Below are positions 5,844-20,704 of a stretch of 29,068 nt of DNA, piece by piece. The stretch spans positions 1 through 29,068 of the IMG/VR virus record IMGVR_UViG_3300033076_000152. One strand, written 5' to 3'. A model generated the notes under the pieces. That model saw nothing but the letters and a program-made list of their open reading frames with translations. It ran no database searches and was not told the DNA's origin. Position 1 is the first letter of the stretch, and every line of letters starts with the position of its first letter. The position numbers were made by a program, and so were the translations under genes. Source of the stretch: a virus. Lineage: Duplodnaviria > Caudoviricetes.

Positions 5844-6035
5844 CTAAACTATCCTATAACTTGCAAATGTTTTGCCGTCTTTAGTTACAATTTTAGTTGC
5901 AATATTTAAACCTTCTTTGCGTAGGTCATTTACTCTTGCAGCTAATCTAAAGCAGCCAAATTTATTTAATGCTTGTAAAGGAGTTATTGTTTTACCTTGC
6001 TCTAAATAACTTTTTATTTGTTGATTTTGTGTCAT
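5844..6035 (-). CDS. Small winged helix-turn-helix protein (HTH_39-like)
   Basis: TQNQQIKSYLEQGKTITPLQALNKFGCFRLAARVNDLRKEGLNI.T...ASY pattern. Confidence 0.8.
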   Translation of the reverse strand: MTQNQQIKSYLEQGKTITPLQALNKFGCFRLAARVNDLRKEGLNIATKIVTKDGKTFASYRIV

Positions 6036-6761: not shown

Positions 6762-7384
6762 TATAAGTTGTTTTTTGCGTTAGTAAATAATTCAGCCAAT
6801 TTTTCTTTTTTGATTAAGTCTTGGTTCAGTTCGTAAAGATGCTTTAATTCTTGCACATTTTCGCAAAAGTCTATTGCAGTTGTTAAATCTTCTTTAGTAC
6901 TGTGCTTTTTAATGTAAGGTGCTGGTTCTTTAGCAAAGTCCATTTCTTCAGCTGGAGTCGCTTCAAACCCTGCCGCTTTCATAAGCCAACCTAATAAAAG
7001 TCTATAAGCTTTACCTTCGGCTCTTGTTTGTGCCATTGAGCAAATAGCGTACTCGTCAAAACTACGTTTGGTTCGTTCCTTATTGGAACATATAGCGTGT
7101 CCGATTGATACTACTTGACCAGTTGCGATATTTCGCACTTCACAAGTCGCCCAATACTTTAACTCGTTTTCTTTGCTTAGGTCTTTTACTTCGGTAATAA
7201 TTGGAATCAAGCCAATTGCCGCCCCAGCGTATCCCCAGCCCTCAACGTTAACAAACTGTTTACCTTGAATGTTGGTGCTTAGTTTTTTTTCTTTGATTAG
7301 ACTTGCCAACTCATTTGATAGACTCAAAAGCGAGTCTTTGTTAATAAGTTCATAGGTAGGTCTAATTTGTTGTAATTCACTCAT
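6761..7384 (-). CDS. Putative single-strand annealing protein (Rad52/Sak/ERF-like superfamily)
   Basis: GKQFVNVEGW...ATCEVRN...GHAICSNKE...SMAQTRAEGKAYR...TPAEEM core plus C-terminal helical domain; next to SSB-like gene. Confidence 0.6.
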   Translation of the reverse strand: MSELQQIRPTYELINKDSLLSLSNELASLIKEKKLSTNIQGKQFVNVEGWGYAGAAIGLIPIITEVKDLSKENELKYWATCEVRNIATGQVVSIGHAICSNKERTKRSFDEYAICSMAQTRAEGKAYRLLLGWLMKAAGFEATPAEEMDFAKEPAPYIKKHSTKEDLTTAIDFCENVQELKHLYELNQDLIKKEKLAELFTNAKNNL

Positions 7385-7437
7385 AATGCAGATTTAAGGT
7401 TATTTAATAATTAAAAGTAATACTATTTTGTGAATAA

Positions 7438-7776
7438 TCAAATAATATTTGAAAGTTTTTTTAGGTCTTCAAGCATATCGGTTTCGTAGTGTAATTCTCG
7501 TACTGTTTTAATGGTCTTTAAAGCGTGGATAATACTTGCGTGGTCACGATTAAATATATTGCCAATAGTTACCAAAGTAAATTCGGTCTTTTGCTTAATA
7601 AAGTAAATAGATATAAATCTTGCTTTTATTAATCGCCTTTCACGACATTTGCCAAGTATTTCATCCGTAGTTAATCCGTAGAATTTAGCTACTTTGCTGA
7701 TTATGCTTTGTGCCGCTTGGGTTTGTTGTTTTATGTCCAATCTTTCCTTCATTGCAGGTTTGGTCCAATAACTCAT
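7438..7776 (-). CDS. Stand-alone DnaA C-terminal (domain IV) HTH protein
   Basis: IISKVAKFYGLTTDEILGKCRERRLIKARFISIY...TLVTIGNIFNRDHASIIHA matches the DnaA domain IV signature (IGxxFxRDHxTVxHA). Confidence 0.88.
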   Translation of the reverse strand: MSYWTKPAMKERLDIKQQTQAAQSIISKVAKFYGLTTDEILGKCRERRLIKARFISIYFIKQKTEFTLVTIGNIFNRDHASIIHALKTIKTVRELHYETDMLEDLKKLSNII

Positions 7777-7882
7777 TTAATTTAGTTTTTAGGTCTTTAA
7801 TTTGTTTTCTAAGTAATTCGTTTTCTAATTCAAGTATTTGATTCATCTTGACCAAATAGCTTTTGTTGTCTATGTAACTCAT
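7685..7882 (-). CDS. Hypothetical coiled-coil protein
   Basis: ILELENELLRKQIKDLKTKLNELL heptads; the C-terminal part overlaps the next gene. Confidence 0.6.
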   Translation of the reverse strand: MSYIDNKSYLVKMNQILELENELLRKQIKDLKTKLNELLDQTCNEGKIGHKTTNPSGTKHNQQSS

Positions 7883-7884
7883 AG

Positions 7885-8187
7885 TTAAAAGTGTAAAAGG
7901 TTTACTGGTAGCATAAAATCTTCGGTAATTTCATACAAGTCCAAGATTAAAAAATGATACGACTTTAAGATACGCTTTTGGATTTCGTTCATACGAGCCA
8001 ACTTAATTAAGTAGTCGTCTTCGTATTTATTCATCAGCTTAATTGGTTCATCCCAAGTAGCTGCTCTCCATTTGTAAAGGTCGTTCTCAATCATTGTTTG
8101 GCGTGATTGTGCCTTTTTAAGCAACTCCAGTAAACATGTGGCACGTTTGTGTAGTTTCAGTTGTTTGCCTTGATGTGGTAAATTCAT
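7885..8187 (-). CDS. Hypothetical protein
   Basis: 100-aa ORF, tightly packed. Confidence 0.7.
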   Translation of the reverse strand: MNLPHQGKQLKLHKRATCLLELLKKAQSRQTMIENDLYKWRAATWDEPIKLMNKYEDDYLIKLARMNEIQKRILKSYHFLILDLYEITEDFMLPVNLLHF

Positions 8188-8192
8188 AGTTT

Positions 8193-8426
8193 TTAGTTTT
8201 TGTTATATGTTTTATTGAAATAATCAATTCCGCCTTCGTATTGAAATTGTTCATCCCTTTTGTTATTCCATACATTCATTTCTCCATCATCAAATGCTTG
8301 TCTTATATCGCATTTTTCAATAGGCAAATATTTTTCTTCTATAACTTTAATTAGTTGCTCTGGTAAAAATGTAAATGTATTGGCATTTTTTATATAATCT
8401 ATAAGTTGCTCTAATGCTGTTTTCAT
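8193..8426 (-). CDS. Hypothetical protein (MKTAxExL...EK..I..AF..G...YFNxTY type)
   Basis: 77-aa ORF; the pattern resembles a recurrent small protein of Bacteroidota phages. Confidence 0.7.
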   Translation of the reverse strand: MKTALEQLIDYIKNANTFTFLPEQLIKVIEEKYLPIEKCDIRQAFDDGEMNVWNNKRDEQFQYEGGIDYFNKTYNKN

Positions 8427-8437
8427 AATTTTAAGTT

Positions 8438-8533
8438 TTATAGGTTTTCTACTAATGCGGTTAAAATTAACGCACCTAATACAATTAAAAATGCGTACAA
8501 AGGTTTGATTGAGTCTTTTTGATACTGATTCAT
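8438..8533 (-). CDS. 31-aa single-TM membrane peptide
   Basis: My translation: MNQYQKDSIKPLYAFLIVLGALILTALVENL*. Fills the gap between 8537 and 8426. Confidence 0.7.
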   Translation of the reverse strand: MNQYQKDSIKPLYAFLIVLGALILTALVENL

Positions 8534-8536
8534 AGT

Positions 8537-8734
8537 TTAGTGTTTTACTTGAATAATAATTGATTTGGTAAATGTAGAAAAAGTAATGCTTTCTACTGTG
8601 AACATAATTGACTTAACTTCTTTCCCAAACATAACGATAACATTATCGCCTACTCTTGGAATTTGTGGTCCGTCAAATACTTGTTGATAGTCTGCTCCGT
8701 TCTCGGAGTAATAGATGGTTGTTTGCCAGTTCAT
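8537..8734 (-). CDS. Hypothetical beta-rich protein
   Basis: 65-aa ORF with IPRVGDNV...FTVESITF motif. Confidence 0.7.
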   Translation of the reverse strand: MNWQTTIYYSENGADYQQVFDGPQIPRVGDNVIVMFGKEVKSIMFTVESITFSTFTKSIIIQVKH

Positions 8735-8757
8735 ATTGATTTGTTTTAAAGGTTAAT

Positions 8758-8783
8758 GTGCGTTGAATAGTCGCACCCCTATT
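8758..8783 (-). ncRNA. Compact H-type pseudoknot in intergenic RNA
   Basis: AATAG-GG-GTGCG-A-CTATT-CAA-CGCAC: stem 1 AATAG/CTATT, stem 2 GTGCG/CGCAC. Confidence 0.6.
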
Positions 8784-8787
8784 TTAT

Positions 8788-8982
8788 TTAAAAGTTTATA
8801 AATAAAGTTCCGTTTGTAGTTGGATAATTTCCGCAACCACTTTGCCAAACTTGCCATACTATACCATTTACATTATAGTATGTATAATCGCCTATTGTAT
8901 TAATATAACAAGTTTTAATATTATTATAAATATAATTTGCAACTTCTTTTACTTCGATTGGGTGTGTGTAGATTGTTTTCAT
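8788..8982 (-). CDS. Hypothetical protein, first gene of the early operon
   Basis: 64-aa ORF directly downstream of the 9015-9045 promoter with an A-rich leader. Confidence 0.7.
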   Translation of the reverse strand: MKTIYTHPIEVKEVANYIYNNIKTCYINTIGDYTYYNVNGIVWQVWQSGCGNYPTTNGTLFINF

Positions 8983-9014
8983 AACTTTTGGTTTTATTGG
9001 TTTGTTTGATAAAT

Positions 9015-9045
9015 CAAAGCTATATCAACATAACTTACTAACAAA
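9015..9045 (-). promoter_or_regulatory. Full Bacteroidota sigma-A-type promoter (early)
   Basis: TTTG (9045-9042), N19, TAGCTTTG (9022-9015), matching the -33/-7 consensus TTTG-N19-21-TAnnTTTG. Confidence 0.8.
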
Positions 9046-9099
9046 ATTTATTTACAATTATTTTTACGCTTTAAGGAAATTTTAACATTTGCACAATAG

Positions 9100-9222
9100 A
9101 AGTTGCACTTTAATACAACTTTTGCTAAATATTTTAGCATTTGATCCGTTTATCGCTCATATTCGGCTCATTTATCGTTCATATTTGAGCCGTATTGATT
9201 GATTTTCTAAATAGATTAGAAA
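9100..9222. repeat. Cluster of palindromes and a 22-bp-periodic direct/inverted repeat
   Basis: AAGTTG/CAACTT (9100-9121); TGCTAAA-TAT-TTTAGCA (9123-9139); TGATCCG-[TTTATCGCTCATATT]-CGGCTCA-[TTTATCGTTCATATT]-TGAGCCG (9142-9192); TTTCTAA/TTAGAAA (9204-9222). Confidence 0.75.
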
Positions 9223-9238
9223 GTCCAGTTTTTTATAT

Positions 9239-9295
9239 AAAAAAAGGAGCGTAGAAACGCCCCTCGCTTGTAAAACCTTAGTCTGTCAATATGAA
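9239..9295 (-). ncRNA. Putative small RNA 2 (about 55 nt) with intrinsic terminator
   Basis: Preceded by TATCTTTG (9307-9300); body TTCATATTGACAGACTAAGGTTTTACAAGCG; terminator AGGGGCGT-TTCT-ACGCTCCT-TTTTTT. Confidence 0.6.
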
Positions 9296-9309
9296 TAGTC
9301 AAAGATAAT

Positions 9310-9363
9310 AAAAAACTCCCAGCTTTTTACACTGGGAGAAACCTAGAACTATGAAAAAACAAC
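9310..9363 (-). ncRNA. Putative small RNA 1 (about 54 nt) with intrinsic terminator
   Basis: Preceded by TATCTTTG (9375-9368); body GTTGTTTTTTCATAGTTCTAGGTTT; terminator CTCCCAG-TGTAAAAAG-CTGGGAG-TTTTTT. Confidence 0.6.
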
Positions 9364-9381
9364 ACTACAAAGATAAGACTT

Positions 9382-9651
9382 CTATTTTGAGCCGTCTTGA
9401 AGCAAATCCTTGTCGTGGTTGTCAACCCTTCTATAACCCTCTTTCCATAGTATTTTGGTTAGGGCAACGCTATTAGCTACTATTTGTTCTTCGCTATCTT
9501 CTTTATACAATACATGCAAAATTTCATGGATATATATCTCAAGCCTTTTTTTACCCTTTAAGCGTGGGTCTATATATATCGTGCCATCACTATCAGCTAT
9601 GCCGTGTGCTTTCTCTCTTCCAAGTTTCTTATGTATTATTTTAATTTTCAT
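9382..9651 (-). CDS. Minimal zincin-like HExxH metallopeptidase (ImmA/IrrE-like fold)
   Basis: AHG...GTIYIDPRL...LEIYIHEILHVL...EEQIV. Confidence 0.75.
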   Translation of the reverse strand: MKIKIIHKKLGREKAHGIADSDGTIYIDPRLKGKKRLEIYIHEILHVLYKEDSEEQIVANSVALTKILWKEGYRRVDNHDKDLLQDGSK

Positions 9652-9841
9652 CTTTTAGACTCAATAAATCCATTCTATCTATTTCTTTAGGAATATATTT
9701 GTGTCCTCCTCTAACTTTAGCCAATGCCTTTTTTATCTCGGTTTCTACTTCGTAAATTTCGTTTAGCTTATTCACTAAAATAGTTTCTTGCTCAAATAAA
9801 GTCATCTTGCTAAAGTTTTTTGGTAGTTTATATGTTGCCAT
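9641..9841 (-). CDS. Hypothetical protein
   Basis: 66-aa ORF overlapping both neighbours by a few codons. Confidence 0.65.
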   Translation of the reverse strand: MATYKLPKNFSKMTLFEQETILVNKLNEIYEVETEIKKALAKVRGGHKYIPKEIDRMDLLSLKDEN

Positions 9842-10019
9842 TTCTTATGATTAATAGTTTTTTCAAATATATGCAGAAATCCAAACTTTCTTCGTAAGCG
9901 TGCTGAAGCCATTGGTCTTGTGTAAGGTCTTGCCTATCCATTGTTGTGCCATAAGTTTCAATCCCTTTTAATTCTCGTTGTTGTATGTCGTTTATTACTT
10001 GTTCGGTTACTTGGCTCAT
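9828..10019 (-). CDS. Small all-alpha NTP-pyrophosphatase/MazG-like protein (putative)
   Basis: RELKGIETYGTTMDR.DL...WLQHAYEESLDFCIYL with EExxD acidic motif. Confidence 0.5.
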   Translation of the reverse strand: MSQVTEQVINDIQQRELKGIETYGTTMDRQDLTQDQWLQHAYEESLDFCIYLKKLLIIRNGNI

Positions 10020-11035
10020 TAGTAAACTTTGTTTTTTATTATGCGTTTGTTGTGTACTCTATAATCTCCGCTTTTTTCTTTCTCCAATACTGCAAACCCT
10101 TGATTATATTGGTCCACGTGTTTTGCGTATTCAACGTTGGGATGCATCAAATGCCCAGTAGTCCAGCAAGTAAATATTTCTCCATCAAATTGGTTTTTAG
10201 TTGTGTATTCGCTTGTTCTGTGAACGTGCGAAGCAATAGCTGACTGCTTAACTCTATCGTACAAAGTCTTAGCTGGACTTACACCGCTGCCACGTCTAAA
10301 AGTAGTATCTCCGTGTATTATTGGCAAATGCCCAAACTTAACGTGGTCAATATTCTTTAATGGCTTAATGTCAAATGCGTTTAGTTGCAAAATGTCCTCT
10401 ATTTCAAACAATTGTAACCCCAGCATTTCTGGAGCTTTAGTCCTCATGTACCTTTCGTATCGGAACTCGTGGTTGGCGTCTAAATTGTAATAGATTGTAA
10501 TATTTTGGAAGCACTTTCTTATATAAGCTAACATTTCAACAATGGCTTCGTGTTCTTCGTCAAACTTTCTTACTCTTGGGTCTTTCTGAAAATCGCTTAA
10601 TTGATAGAAGTCAACTAAATCGCCATTTATAAATAATGTGTCTATTCCTTCTTTTGTTAAGTATTCAAATGTAATATCAATTGCCTTAGGATCGTGGAAT
10701 GGTACTTGCAAATCACTTATAAAACCCATCTTCTTGATTCCAACTGGTAGTGAAAATACTACCTTTTCCTCTACCCACGTGGGCGGTTGAACAAAGTTTG
10801 AAGAGTGTCTTGTAAATTCTTCTTTGTATGTTTTATTTGTAAGTGAGTTTCTTTTTTTATCGCCTACCTTTCCTCTGTAATATCTTACTAAAGTTCTAAT
10901 CGCTTCTACATTATCAAAGTGATTTTTGTTTTCCTTAAATATTAGATGTGCTAAAGTATGCGATGGCATCCATTGTGGATACTTTTCTAAATAGTCAAGA
11001 ATAATCTTGGCTGACATTGTTGTTTTTCTGCCCAT
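10019..11035 (-). CDS. Calcineurin-like metallophosphoesterase with N-terminal extra domain
   Basis: ISDLQVPFHD, INGDLVD, DANHE, IHGD and SHVHR motifs in the canonical order. Confidence 0.88.
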   Translation of the reverse strand: MGRKTTMSAKIILDYLEKYPQWMPSHTLAHLIFKENKNHFDNVEAIRTLVRYYRGKVGDKKRNSLTNKTYKEEFTRHSSNFVQPPTWVEEKVVFSLPVGIKKMGFISDLQVPFHDPKAIDITFEYLTKEGIDTLFINGDLVDFYQLSDFQKDPRVRKFDEEHEAIVEMLAYIRKCFQNITIYYNLDANHEFRYERYMRTKAPEMLGLQLFEIEDILQLNAFDIKPLKNIDHVKFGHLPIIHGDTTFRRGSGVSPAKTLYDRVKQSAIASHVHRTSEYTTKNQFDGEIFTCWTTGHLMHPNVEYAKHVDQYNQGFAVLEKEKSGDYRVHNKRIIKNKVY

Positions 11036-11052: not shown

Positions 11053-11652
11053 TTAAACGCTATCTCGTACCAAATCTGCTTCAGCTTCTCTTCTAATTAC
11101 TAATCCGTCAAGTCCCTTCCCTTCCCACAATCTTTTGCTTTGCTCAATCTGTTCTGCAATCCCTTCGTAGTCTTTTTTAGCCACTAAATCAACTATTGCC
11201 TTCATTTCTTTGCGACTTTCTCCGTCAATCTTTGCACCTCTATTGTAAACCATAGAAACCAACGCACCACGAGTGTCCTCATTTAATTCATCTAATTGAG
11301 GATAAATCTTCTTTGTTAAAGCGTAGTATTTAGGAATTGACTTCTTAACAAAAACTTCGTACGCAATATTATACGGAATGATAACATTTAACACTTCGCC
11401 ACGCATCATTGTTTTAACCACTTCCCCTTTAATACCGCAGAATCTTTTAAGTGCATTTAAAAAGTTTAGGTTCAAACCTTGCCAATCCGAGAATAATTGT
11501 GTCTCTTTTACATAACCCACATCATAGCCAAGACCTATCGTAAGTCCAGAGTCGCCACCTGCCCAAATTGGTTTTTGATAGCGTTTCTCGTAAACCGCAC
11601 GACCACCAACTTCATGTTGGATAATTAAATCAATGGCTTTCTTGGAAATCAT
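11053..11652 (-). CDS. Endolysin, lysozyme-like (pesticin C-terminal/GH24-like)
   Basis: AIDLIIQHE...GDSGLTIGLGYDVG...GALVSMVYNRG...GLVIRREAEADL. Confidence 0.88.
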   Translation of the reverse strand: MISKKAIDLIIQHEVGGRAVYEKRYQKPIWAGGDSGLTIGLGYDVGYVKETQLFSDWQGLNLNFLNALKRFCGIKGEVVKTMMRGEVLNVIIPYNIAYEVFVKKSIPKYYALTKKIYPQLDELNEDTRGALVSMVYNRGAKIDGESRKEMKAIVDLVAKKDYEGIAEQIEQSKRLWEGKGLDGLVIRREAEADLVRDSV

Positions 11653-11735
11653 AGTAAGTTATATGCAAAGATAGTTATACAAGTAATCCAAAATACAATA
11701 CCAATTGCAAATGCTTGTTTTTCGTTATTTTTCAT
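11649..11735 (-). CDS. 28-aa single-TM peptide in lysis cassette
   Basis: My translation: MKNNEKQAFAIGIVFWITCITIFAYNLL*. ATGA overlap with the endolysin start. Confidence 0.6.
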   Translation of the reverse strand: MKNNEKQAFAIGIVFWITCITIFAYNLL

Positions 11736-19181: not shown

Positions 19182-20704
19182 TAGTTGCCTCTTCTTATAT
19201 TTAAGTTATTGTTTGCTCTTGTTGTAGCTAAAACCAAATCAGAACCCTTTAAAACAAATTCTCCTAAGATACTACCTAAGCCGCCCATTCCACCACCTAA
19301 TCCAGATGCCGCTCCTGCTATCTCACTTGTGCCACCGGTAATTGCAGCCAATATTGTTTTAAATAACAATGCTTGTGCAATCATTGAGATCAACTGAATT
19401 ACTATTTGTTTAAACGATTGTTCCAATGCCTTGCCAATATCTTCTCCCATAACCATAGCACTAATTACGTTATCAAACGCAGGTGCTAAAGTATTTGTTA
19501 TATCTCTTGTTAACGCTAATTGTGCGTTAAATTCTTTTTGTCTTTGTATTGCAGCGTATTCCGCATCTGCTACTTGCGTAGTCGCCCAAGCTGGAACATC
19601 ATTTGGTAATCTTGTAGGAGTAGCTGCAGTAGGAGTAACGTTTGGTTGCTCTACAACTGTTGCCATTCCAACCTTTATAACTCTTGCTTGTTTGCCTAAT
19701 TTTTCAACGCTTTGACTTGCTTTGTCAGCTGCAGAACCTAATTGTTTTGCACCATTAGTAACATTATAAAATGGATTACTTGCAGCTCCTCGTATAGTTT
19801 CCATCAATGATTTATTCATTGATTGAATTGAATTATTTAGTTGTACTGCCTCGTTTGCTGCATCAATATATTTATCTTTTAGTCCAACAGTTGCGGCTGC
19901 TTGTGCTACAGTTGCGCTTACATATTGATTACCTAAATTTTTTGTGTTTTCTAATCCTTTGTTATATTCTTTTGCTGCTTCAATTGCTCTTTTATTTGCT
20001 TCAGCAAGTTTTATAGTCTTGTCAGCGATTTCATCTACATATCTTGAAGTTATTGCTTGTGCAATTAAAGATTGAGTATAAAGTTCAACTGCTTGTCTTG
20101 CTTGGTCTGTTGTTTTAATTGTAGCCGCATAAGAAGCGTTTACTTTTGATAATTCAGCTATAACAAACTTTAAAGCGTTTGCTCTTTTATTATCAGCTAA
20201 AGTTACATCGTCAGCTAAATTAATATATGCTTGCAGTTTTATTCCACTTTCACTTGCACTTGCTTTTGCCTTATTTAAACTTTCAGCAAATTTATCTTCT
20301 GCTTCTTTAGCACTATCAACGCCTTTTATAAAATTAGCAATCTTAGGACCAAATGCAACAATCAAAGAAGATACCGCACCTAAAGCCAATCCAATTCCTG
20401 CTGGGCCCATTAAGCCACTTGCCATTGCTTGTAAAGCAGATTTTGTTCCACCTGCTTCTTTTTGTAGTCTTTGGAAACTCTCTAATAAAGGGTTTAAGTT
20501 GTTGGCAATACCAATAAAGCCATACGGAGCATCTTGTGCGACTCTTGACAAGTTAGTCAAAGCGTTAGTCGCTGCACCACTTGTTTGAGGAATTTGACGG
20601 AACGCATTACCTAAGTTATTAGTAGCAGTTATCGTCTGGTTTATATTATTTACTGCGTCTTTATTGTCCGCAGTAATGGTAATTTTAAGCGTTTCTTGTG
20701 CCAT
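19181..20704 (-). CDS. Tail tape measure protein
   Basis: Ala-rich helical protein after the tail chaperone; LTNLSRVAQDAPYGFIGIANNLNPL motif; Gly-rich C-terminus. Confidence 0.88.
   Translation of the reverse strand: MAQETLKITITADNKDAVNNINQTITATNNLGNAFRQIPQTSGAATNALTNLSRVAQDAPYGFIGIANNLNPLLESFQRLQKEAGGTKSALQAMASGLMGPAGIGLALGAVSSLIVAFGPKIANFIKGVDSAKEAEDKFAESLNKAKASASESGIKLQAYINLADDVTLADNKRANALKFVIAELSKVNASYAATIKTTDQARQAVELYTQSLIAQAITSRYVDEIADKTIKLAEANKRAIEAAKEYNKGLENTKNLGNQYVSATVAQAAATVGLKDKYIDAANEAVQLNNSIQSMNKSLMETIRGAASNPFYNVTNGAKQLGSAADKASQSVEKLGKQARVIKVGMATVVEQPNVTPTAATPTRLPNDVPAWATTQVADAEYAAIQRQKEFNAQLALTRDITNTLAPAFDNVISAMVMGEDIGKALEQSFKQIVIQLISMIAQALLFKTILAAITGGTSEIAGAASGLGGGMGGLGSILGEFVLKGSDLVLATTRANNNLNIRRGN

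Follow-up and report, generated by a model that had tools for sequence, protein, structure and literature searches.

Two conserved promoter-terminator cassettes, back to back on the minus strand of a siphovirus genome, probably encode trans-acting small RNAs that would damp translation of the early gene class, likely at the early-to-late transition. The anatomy of the two units, their conservation and their class-specific complementarity to early gene starts are established. Transcription of the units, pairing in the cell and repression are what we infer from these features.

Genome setting and anatomy of the units

The window, i.e. the whole stretch of DNA analysed, is a virus record of 29,068 bases with an estimated completeness of 99%. 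All annotated genes of the window are on the minus strand, in the order portal, head, tail, lysis and metallophosphoesterase genes, then a run of small genes, followed by replication genes and the terminase. Early and late labels were assigned by gene position, both in the window and in relatives. The phage is a 29-kb siphovirus with an AT content of ∼66%, in which no integrase was found. Neither an integrase nor a CI-like repressor family was matched among 50 ORFs compared with PHROGs and 28 window ORFs compared with Pfam; domains present include a winged helix (5844-6035) and a DnaA C-terminal helix-turn-helix (7438-7776). Among cultured phages, the nearest to this one are Flavobacterium phage 11b (terminase 52%, capsid 37%) and Cellulophaga phage phi10:1. 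Many window genes are preceded by TAnnTTTG boxes, which points to a Bacteroidota host. When bacterial genomes were searched with the capsid, the single match was on a 3.8-kb contig, and plasmid searches gave no Bacteroidota match among the matches listed.

Both units occupy the gap that separates the last late gene from the early promoter, and each has a −7 box, an anti-AUG block, a GGUUU block and an intrinsic terminator. The initial annotation had described two tandem minus-strand units of box, CAT-containing segment and terminator, and these are indeed present, with boxes at 9375-9368 and 9307-9300 and terminator stems at 9338-9316 and 9265-9244. The last late-region gene (9382-9651, minus strand), which encodes 89 amino acids and belongs to no family, has its stop 7 nt before box 1 and was used as the locus anchor. 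Box 1, TATCTTTG (9368-9375, minus), has no TTG 17-23 nt upstream. This promoter box has been placed at −12 to −5 (PMC6847099; PMC9723704), and RNA starts are therefore predicted at 9363 and 9295. The sigma-70 promoter scan does not cover promoters of the −7-box type.

Predicted RNA1 is ∼55 nt in length (9309-9363, minus; fold z −3.7). It consists of an open 5′ part, an anti-AUG block with CAU at 9353-9351, a GGUUU block (9343-9339) and terminator 1, which has an 8-bp stem (9338-9316) and a U-run (9310-9338 in all, minus). Box 2, also TATCTTTG (9300-9307, minus), follows immediately after this U-run. Predicted RNA2, ∼57 nt (9239-9295, minus), carries its anti-AUG CAU at the extreme 5′ end (9293-9291), a AAGGUUUU block (9279-9272) and terminator 2, with a stem at 9265-9244 and a U-run (9239-9265 in all, minus). 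Each unit has one terminator hairpin, with the pairing blocks in the 5′ tail, and the predicted RNAs contain no ATG. The spacer had been described as unstructured; RNA1 has the open 5′ part, but RNA2 forms a weak internal hairpin that partly covers its GGUUU block. Three minus-strand terminators are called across the whole window, and two of these belong to units 1 and 2. A contig from one sequencing run is identical to window positions 9239-9471, and this run may represent the sample from which the record came.

Downstream, a likely early promoter, consisting of TTTG, 19 nt and TAGCTTTG (9015-9045, minus), precedes the first small gene. Its box (9015-9022) has a G at −10 and deviates from TAHHTTTG, the revised consensus; the usual box in relatives is TATCTTTG or TATCTTTA. 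The first early gene (8735-9011) is exchangeable in that contigs from three sequencing runs skip it, and in relatives the slot holds different genes, usually with a leader matching the RNAs. Between the cassette and the early promoter, the spacer (9040-9235) has short repeats, TTTATCGC/TTCATATT and TTTGAGCCG. Among relatives it varies in length and is a mosaic of blocks. Possibly it is an origin or a protein-binding region.

Conservation and pairing with early gene starts

Of 32 loci anchored by the 89-aa gene, 30 have the cassette, with the unit-1 signature behind the last late gene, as do 69/69 loci anchored by the phosphoesterase; at least 700 nt of downstream sequence was needed for this count, 11 shorter loci were dropped, the two anchor sets overlap, and the unit-1 signature was built after inspection of loci. 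Two loci, L105 and L110, have no cassette behind the homolog of the 89-aa gene. The early leaders of L105 are still A/C-rich, and its RNA may therefore lie elsewhere or have been lost. Among 49 more distant loci anchored on a 207-aa early gene, the tandem cassette is present in four and was not seen in the other 45.

Across an alignment of 32 cassettes there is almost no variation in the CAUAG of unit 1 or the GGUU of unit 2. The terminator stems of these cassettes change in both arms or are replaced as a whole, and they still fold; in clade C the terminator 2 hairpin is replaced entirely and the upstream blocks are kept. A box 2 is called in 79/84 distinct cassettes, and 77 of the 79 fit TAHHTTTG (the call in L021 is actually the early promoter). 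Box 1 is present in 26 of the 84 and missing in 58, mostly because unit 1 there forms the 3′ UTR of the last late gene, as in clade C, where it directly follows the stop codon. Unit 2 keeps its own box across relatives, with CAU fixed at +1/+2. The 48 clade C cassettes are variable at positions −4 to −2 behind box 2 (1.2-1.6 bits), whereas positions −1 to +9 vary in 1/480 cells. Conservation thus sets in at −1/+1, which matches the published box position. Relatives keep the box and the anti-AUG block, not the terminators alone; what the initial annotation termed an array is better described as a conserved pair, with one or two units per phage.

Insertions are seen in a few relatives. In L031 an extra box-to-terminator-like unit of unrelated sequence lies between units 1 and 2, and a further hairpin comes after. 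L070 and L077 carry, just behind terminator 2, an inserted gene that has a −7 box of its own and looks HNH-like by eye.

The predicted targets, from cofold energies, are the initiation regions of the first eight early genes (7370-9007, minus), whose ATGs are at 8982, 8734, 8533, 8426, 8187, 7882, 7776 and 7384. Early leaders are A/C-rich and often have AAACC and ACU-AUG-A. The sRNA1 identities given in the initial annotation are exact: 16/19 to 8420-8438 and 15/19 to 8976-8994, the differences being two G-U pairs plus one and two mismatches. The shared blocks it listed are also found, TTCATAGTT at 8533 and 8187, TCATAGTT at 7882, and TTCATATTGA together with AAGGTT at 8734. Its range of six early genes was drawn too narrowly, as matches extend to 7384, 6761 and 6035.

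RNA1 pairs with the first six early starts at a mean of −12.98 kcal/mol, compared with −8.0 and −8.4 for two kinds of shuffles of 1000 each (p = 0.001 and 0.002). On the 27 late starts it is ordinary relative to shuffles (p = 0.59 and 0.76). Early pairing thus exceeds both shuffles and late starts, the comparison that the initial annotation had proposed. When the first eight early starts are compared with the 27 late starts by cofold energy, p is 1.4e-4 for RNA1 and 6.5e-4 for RNA2. The advantage of early starts, 13 of them against 27 late ones, is also seen when full-length RNAs are used and folding costs are counted (p = 0.005 for RNA1, 0.010 for RNA2). Single-site energies are modest, and of the top 27 among the 553 AUG contexts in the genome, 22 and 25 are internal, i.e. 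non-start; for these two reasons individual targets are not nameable with confidence. The pairing signal is a property of the gene class, not of single sites.

Of the six coding-strand copies of ACUAUGA, four are at early starts, one is at the endolysin start and one is internal. At 11630-11673 (minus), the endolysin gene has its own TATCTTTG box and, alone among the late genes, ACUAUGA at its start. The pairing energy of either RNA there is about −9 kcal/mol, and lysis timing might therefore also be affected. This context is absent from the clade A relatives examined.

The class preference extends to relatives. Each of 12 RNAs, drawn from four clades, pairs more strongly with its own early starts than with its own late ones (p from 0.03 to 2.5e-6). 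Shuffles that keep CAT, applied to 25 starts sampled per class, match the early value in 0/100 for 11 RNAs and in 3/100 for one; on late starts 11 of the 12 RNAs are ordinary by this measure, the exception being one RNA at 4/100. RNA1 looks generic and RNA2 looks tuned to the leaders of its own clade. Own-clade early starts score best for six of eight RNA2s, with the other two best on another clade, and the RNA1s of clades A, B and C have no own-clade preference. RNA2 of clades A and C mostly reads CAUAUUG. CAAUAUG starts occur in 17/75 gene families of clades A and C and in 0/48 of clades B and D (p = 1e-4), a comparison of four related clades whose statistics ignore shared descent. CUAUG is commoner in B and D (20/48 families) than in A and C (12/75). 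The expectation that spacers co-vary with early gene starts thus holds for CAUAUUG/CAAUAUG at the clade level and not for AGGUUU/AAACCU versus UGGUUU/AAACCA; the latter contrast, 13:4 versus 18:9 on clustered leaders, fails per gene family (p = 0.25) and was rejected.

These properties suggest how the units might work. The host polymerase would most likely make short RNAs, or a late mRNA would end in one. CAU(A) would pair with AUG, and GGUUU with the AAACC/AAAAC tract of early leaders, such that the open 5′ part would cover the AUG and the A-rich tract around −12. Initiation in Flavobacterium is favoured by adenines at −3, −6, −12 and −13 and by low structure (PMC6847099), and pairing over a start codon is repressive in the GibS RNA of the same phylum (PMC7366714). 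Early-class translation would then be lowered as a whole, most likely at the shift from early to late expression. Timing is the weakest step of this reading. Boxes 1 and 2 have no upstream TTG, in which they resemble five late-gene boxes and differ from the early box; this and the frequent occurrence of unit 1 as a late 3′ UTR suggest late timing. A lone −7 box, however, is normal for host promoters (PMC6847099), and RNA synthesis could therefore begin as soon as infection does, and a role as timer or in immunity is possible. The central proposal of the initial annotation, small RNAs antisense to the phage's own early starts, is well supported by the conservation, the class pairing excess, the clade co-variation and the recurrence in independent families; transcripts, repression and the candidate roles (early shut-off, carrier state or superinfection exclusion) are its predicted part.

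Units in cultured phages and more distant loci

Phage 11b has a single, unannotated unit (NC_006356, positions 30326-30400) with a box, UUCAUAG, UUUGGUUU and a terminator. It is situated behind the phosphoesterase gene and before a promoter box and small genes. Shuffles equal the pairing of the 11b RNA with 25 early starts in 1/300 and with nine accessory genes of the late region in 0/300. There is no excess on 26 structural starts (48/300 shuffles), and early versus structural starts, compared directly, give p = 0.065. Several small genes inserted among the 11b structural genes carry a matching AAACCAAAU leader.

The phi10:1 unit (19968-20044, minus) is on the strand opposite to the genes. 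Its second block differs and reads GGUUAGUUAGUUUU, which is matched by AAACUAAC-type leaders. For this RNA, shuffles reach the observed value in 2/100 on non-structural starts and in 40/100 on structural starts. Two further loci, L292 and L298, also have the unit on the strand opposite to the genes. A candidate unit in Polaribacter phage P12002L was negative (54/100 shuffles).

A pattern search that did not use the terminator (box, TCATAGTT, GGTTT) gave 52 distinct matches, and a terminator follows 28 of them, compared with 2/520 random sites and 1/20 matches to a scrambled pattern. The 28 form six groups, with 23 in one family. A second pattern is followed by a terminator in 4/40 matches versus 4/400 in the control. 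Most pattern matches lie between long upstream genes and short downstream genes. CAU is found 5 or 6 bases behind the box in 24/32 matches, and downstream starts pair better than upstream starts in 18 of 22 loci. Three pattern matches (L213, L267 and L326) and L021 have no pairing excess on downstream starts; L108 has just two downstream genes. GU-rich tails before terminators at five of the 45 more distant loci without a visible tandem cassette gave mixed results, with no consistent pairing excess. In four loci (L141, L168, L173, L185) such tails have no CAU, and two of these share a GTTTCTAC loop with terminator 2.

It is nearly as likely as not, and we offer it tentatively, that an RNA-only class switch is widespread in Bacteroidota siphoviruses. 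Early leaders would carry a shared tag, and one or two terminator-tailed RNAs with a 5′-terminal anti-AUG would silence the whole class and so replace a protein repressor. Tag and RNA would co-evolve in each lineage, and newly acquired accessory genes might enter the regulon once they take on the tag, a route suggested by those within the 11b late region.

Alternative readings, known RNAs and significance

An unlikely alternative is that the RNAs are produced constantly and serve as immunity, either to keep a resident genome quiet in a carrier state or to block incoming related phages. The RNA1s of clades A, B and C pair equally well or better with the early starts of other clades, the −7 boxes fit the host primary sigma consensus, the ORFs scanned matched neither an integrase nor a CI-like repressor, and the P1 c4 RNA is an immunity RNA (PMC5320573), all of which would suit such a role. 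Yet unit 1 is often merely a late-operon 3′ UTR, RNA2 is tuned to its own clade, and there is no sign of a maintained state, the 3.8-kb contig being the sole match in bacterial genomes. It is quite improbable that the RNAs are really directed at certain host mRNAs that have A-rich leaders and AUG-AAA starts, and that the likeness to early leaders is a by-product. From 2 to 12% of 100 Bacteroidota chromosomal starts do reach the top-quartile energies of early starts, which amounts to many genes per genome, and action on host mRNAs is known from phage sRNAs, for example PreS (PMC12197685). However, none of the 12 RNAs is clearly above shuffles on these host-like starts (best 3/40), which were called from 150 kb of a Prevotella replicon and are a phylum-level proxy, not the true host. 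AAACC is scarce in the host-like leaders (4/100) compared with early leaders (68/206). The initial annotation had named host mRNAs as alternative targets, and this proxy disfavours a general silencing of them.

Action in cis has a still smaller probability. Here, read-through of the terminators would let late transcripts fold onto the first early starts and block their translation. The single-strand gene layout, the position of the cassette directly upstream of the early operon and the frequent lack of a promoter at unit 1 would permit this, but unit 2 retains its own box with CAU fixed at +1/+2, and the units of phi10:1, L292 and L298 are on the strand opposite to the genes. Hardly probable, too, is an absence of RNA function, the units being relics of an inverted gene start, mini-ORFs of the opposite strand, or a DNA site beside two ordinary terminators. 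The plus-strand reading of each unit does resemble an early leader with its ATG, a 41-aa ORF begins at 9351, and the genome is AT-rich at ∼66%. Against this, conservation begins at the predicted +1, and the GU-rich pre-terminator tails of the five more distant phage loci have no consistent excess. Mini-ORFs were rejected as the function, as the opposite-strand ORFs range from 4 to 74 aa (unit 1) and from 1 to 54 aa (unit 2), and no single peptide is common to the clades. The preferred reading thus remains that of trans-acting RNAs directed at the early class.

By their sequence features and conservation, the units have a putative intergenic promoter and an intrinsic terminator, a conserved single-stranded seed complementary to initiation regions (the second block of RNA2 is partly paired), and no conserved coding capacity. 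They would work like trans-encoded, initiation-blocking sRNAs. GibS of Bacteroides thetaiotaomicron, of the same phylum, is likewise trans-encoded, with a long single-stranded 5′ seed and two seed regions; it pairs over the start codons of mRNAs without a Shine-Dalgarno sequence and represses them, as is predicted for the units (PMC7366714). GibS is chromosomal and has two metabolic targets, whereas the units are phage-borne, ∼55 nt and match a tag of their own gene class. No sequence or Rfam link between GibS and the units was found.

The c4 RNA of P1/P7 (RF01695) controls one antirepressor operon. The units have many predicted targets, one terminator hairpin and an open 5′ anti-AUG seed, whereas c4 RNA has three stem-loops, is cut by RNase P, pairs through loops and acts in temperate immunity (PMC5320573; PMC2864571). 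The likeness is that c4 is a phage trans antisense RNA with two pairing elements, for the initiation site and upstream, and that its specificity changes between phages (PMC5320573; PMC2864571). The RF01695 covariance model has no match in 7000-10500 at E up to 5, and on this ground and that of structure the units were rejected as c4 RNAs. Other Rfam models gave four chance-level matches below the gathering score in 7000-10500 and none at the gathering score in 10 related loci.

Lambda OOP, aQ and P22 sar likewise come from phages, prevent translation of phage genes and influence development, but each is described as cis-antisense to one target gene (PMC12197685). The units do not overlap early genes, and their predicted pairing is imperfect and extends to many of them. 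An identity as cis-antisense RNA was rejected: the units share a strand with the early genes, the nearest start of which is at least 250 nt away, and the best match is 16/19. PreS, VpdS and DicF are phage-encoded base-pairing sRNAs as well; they are proteobacterial, Hfq-linked and largely directed at host mRNAs, and the portions of this source consulted describe none that matches a tag at the start codons of the phage's own early class (PMC12197685). Six putative non-coding RNAs reported in a supplement for Cellulophaga phage phi38:1 (PMC5335546) may bear on the units. No description of such units was found in the literature covered, most subscription papers and supplements being outside that coverage.

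Early-gene shut-off in small phages that have neither their own polymerase nor an obvious repressor is understood mainly from a few models. The units offer a concrete and testable mechanism that is consistent with Shine-Dalgarno-free translation in Bacteroidota. Similar single units in two cultured phages with named hosts, 11b and phi10:1, make the mechanism testable there. If the reading is true, these would represent a class of phage sRNA without an Rfam match here, and early regulons would be readable from sequence. The ∼55-nt units might also provide a knock-down scaffold for Bacteroidota.
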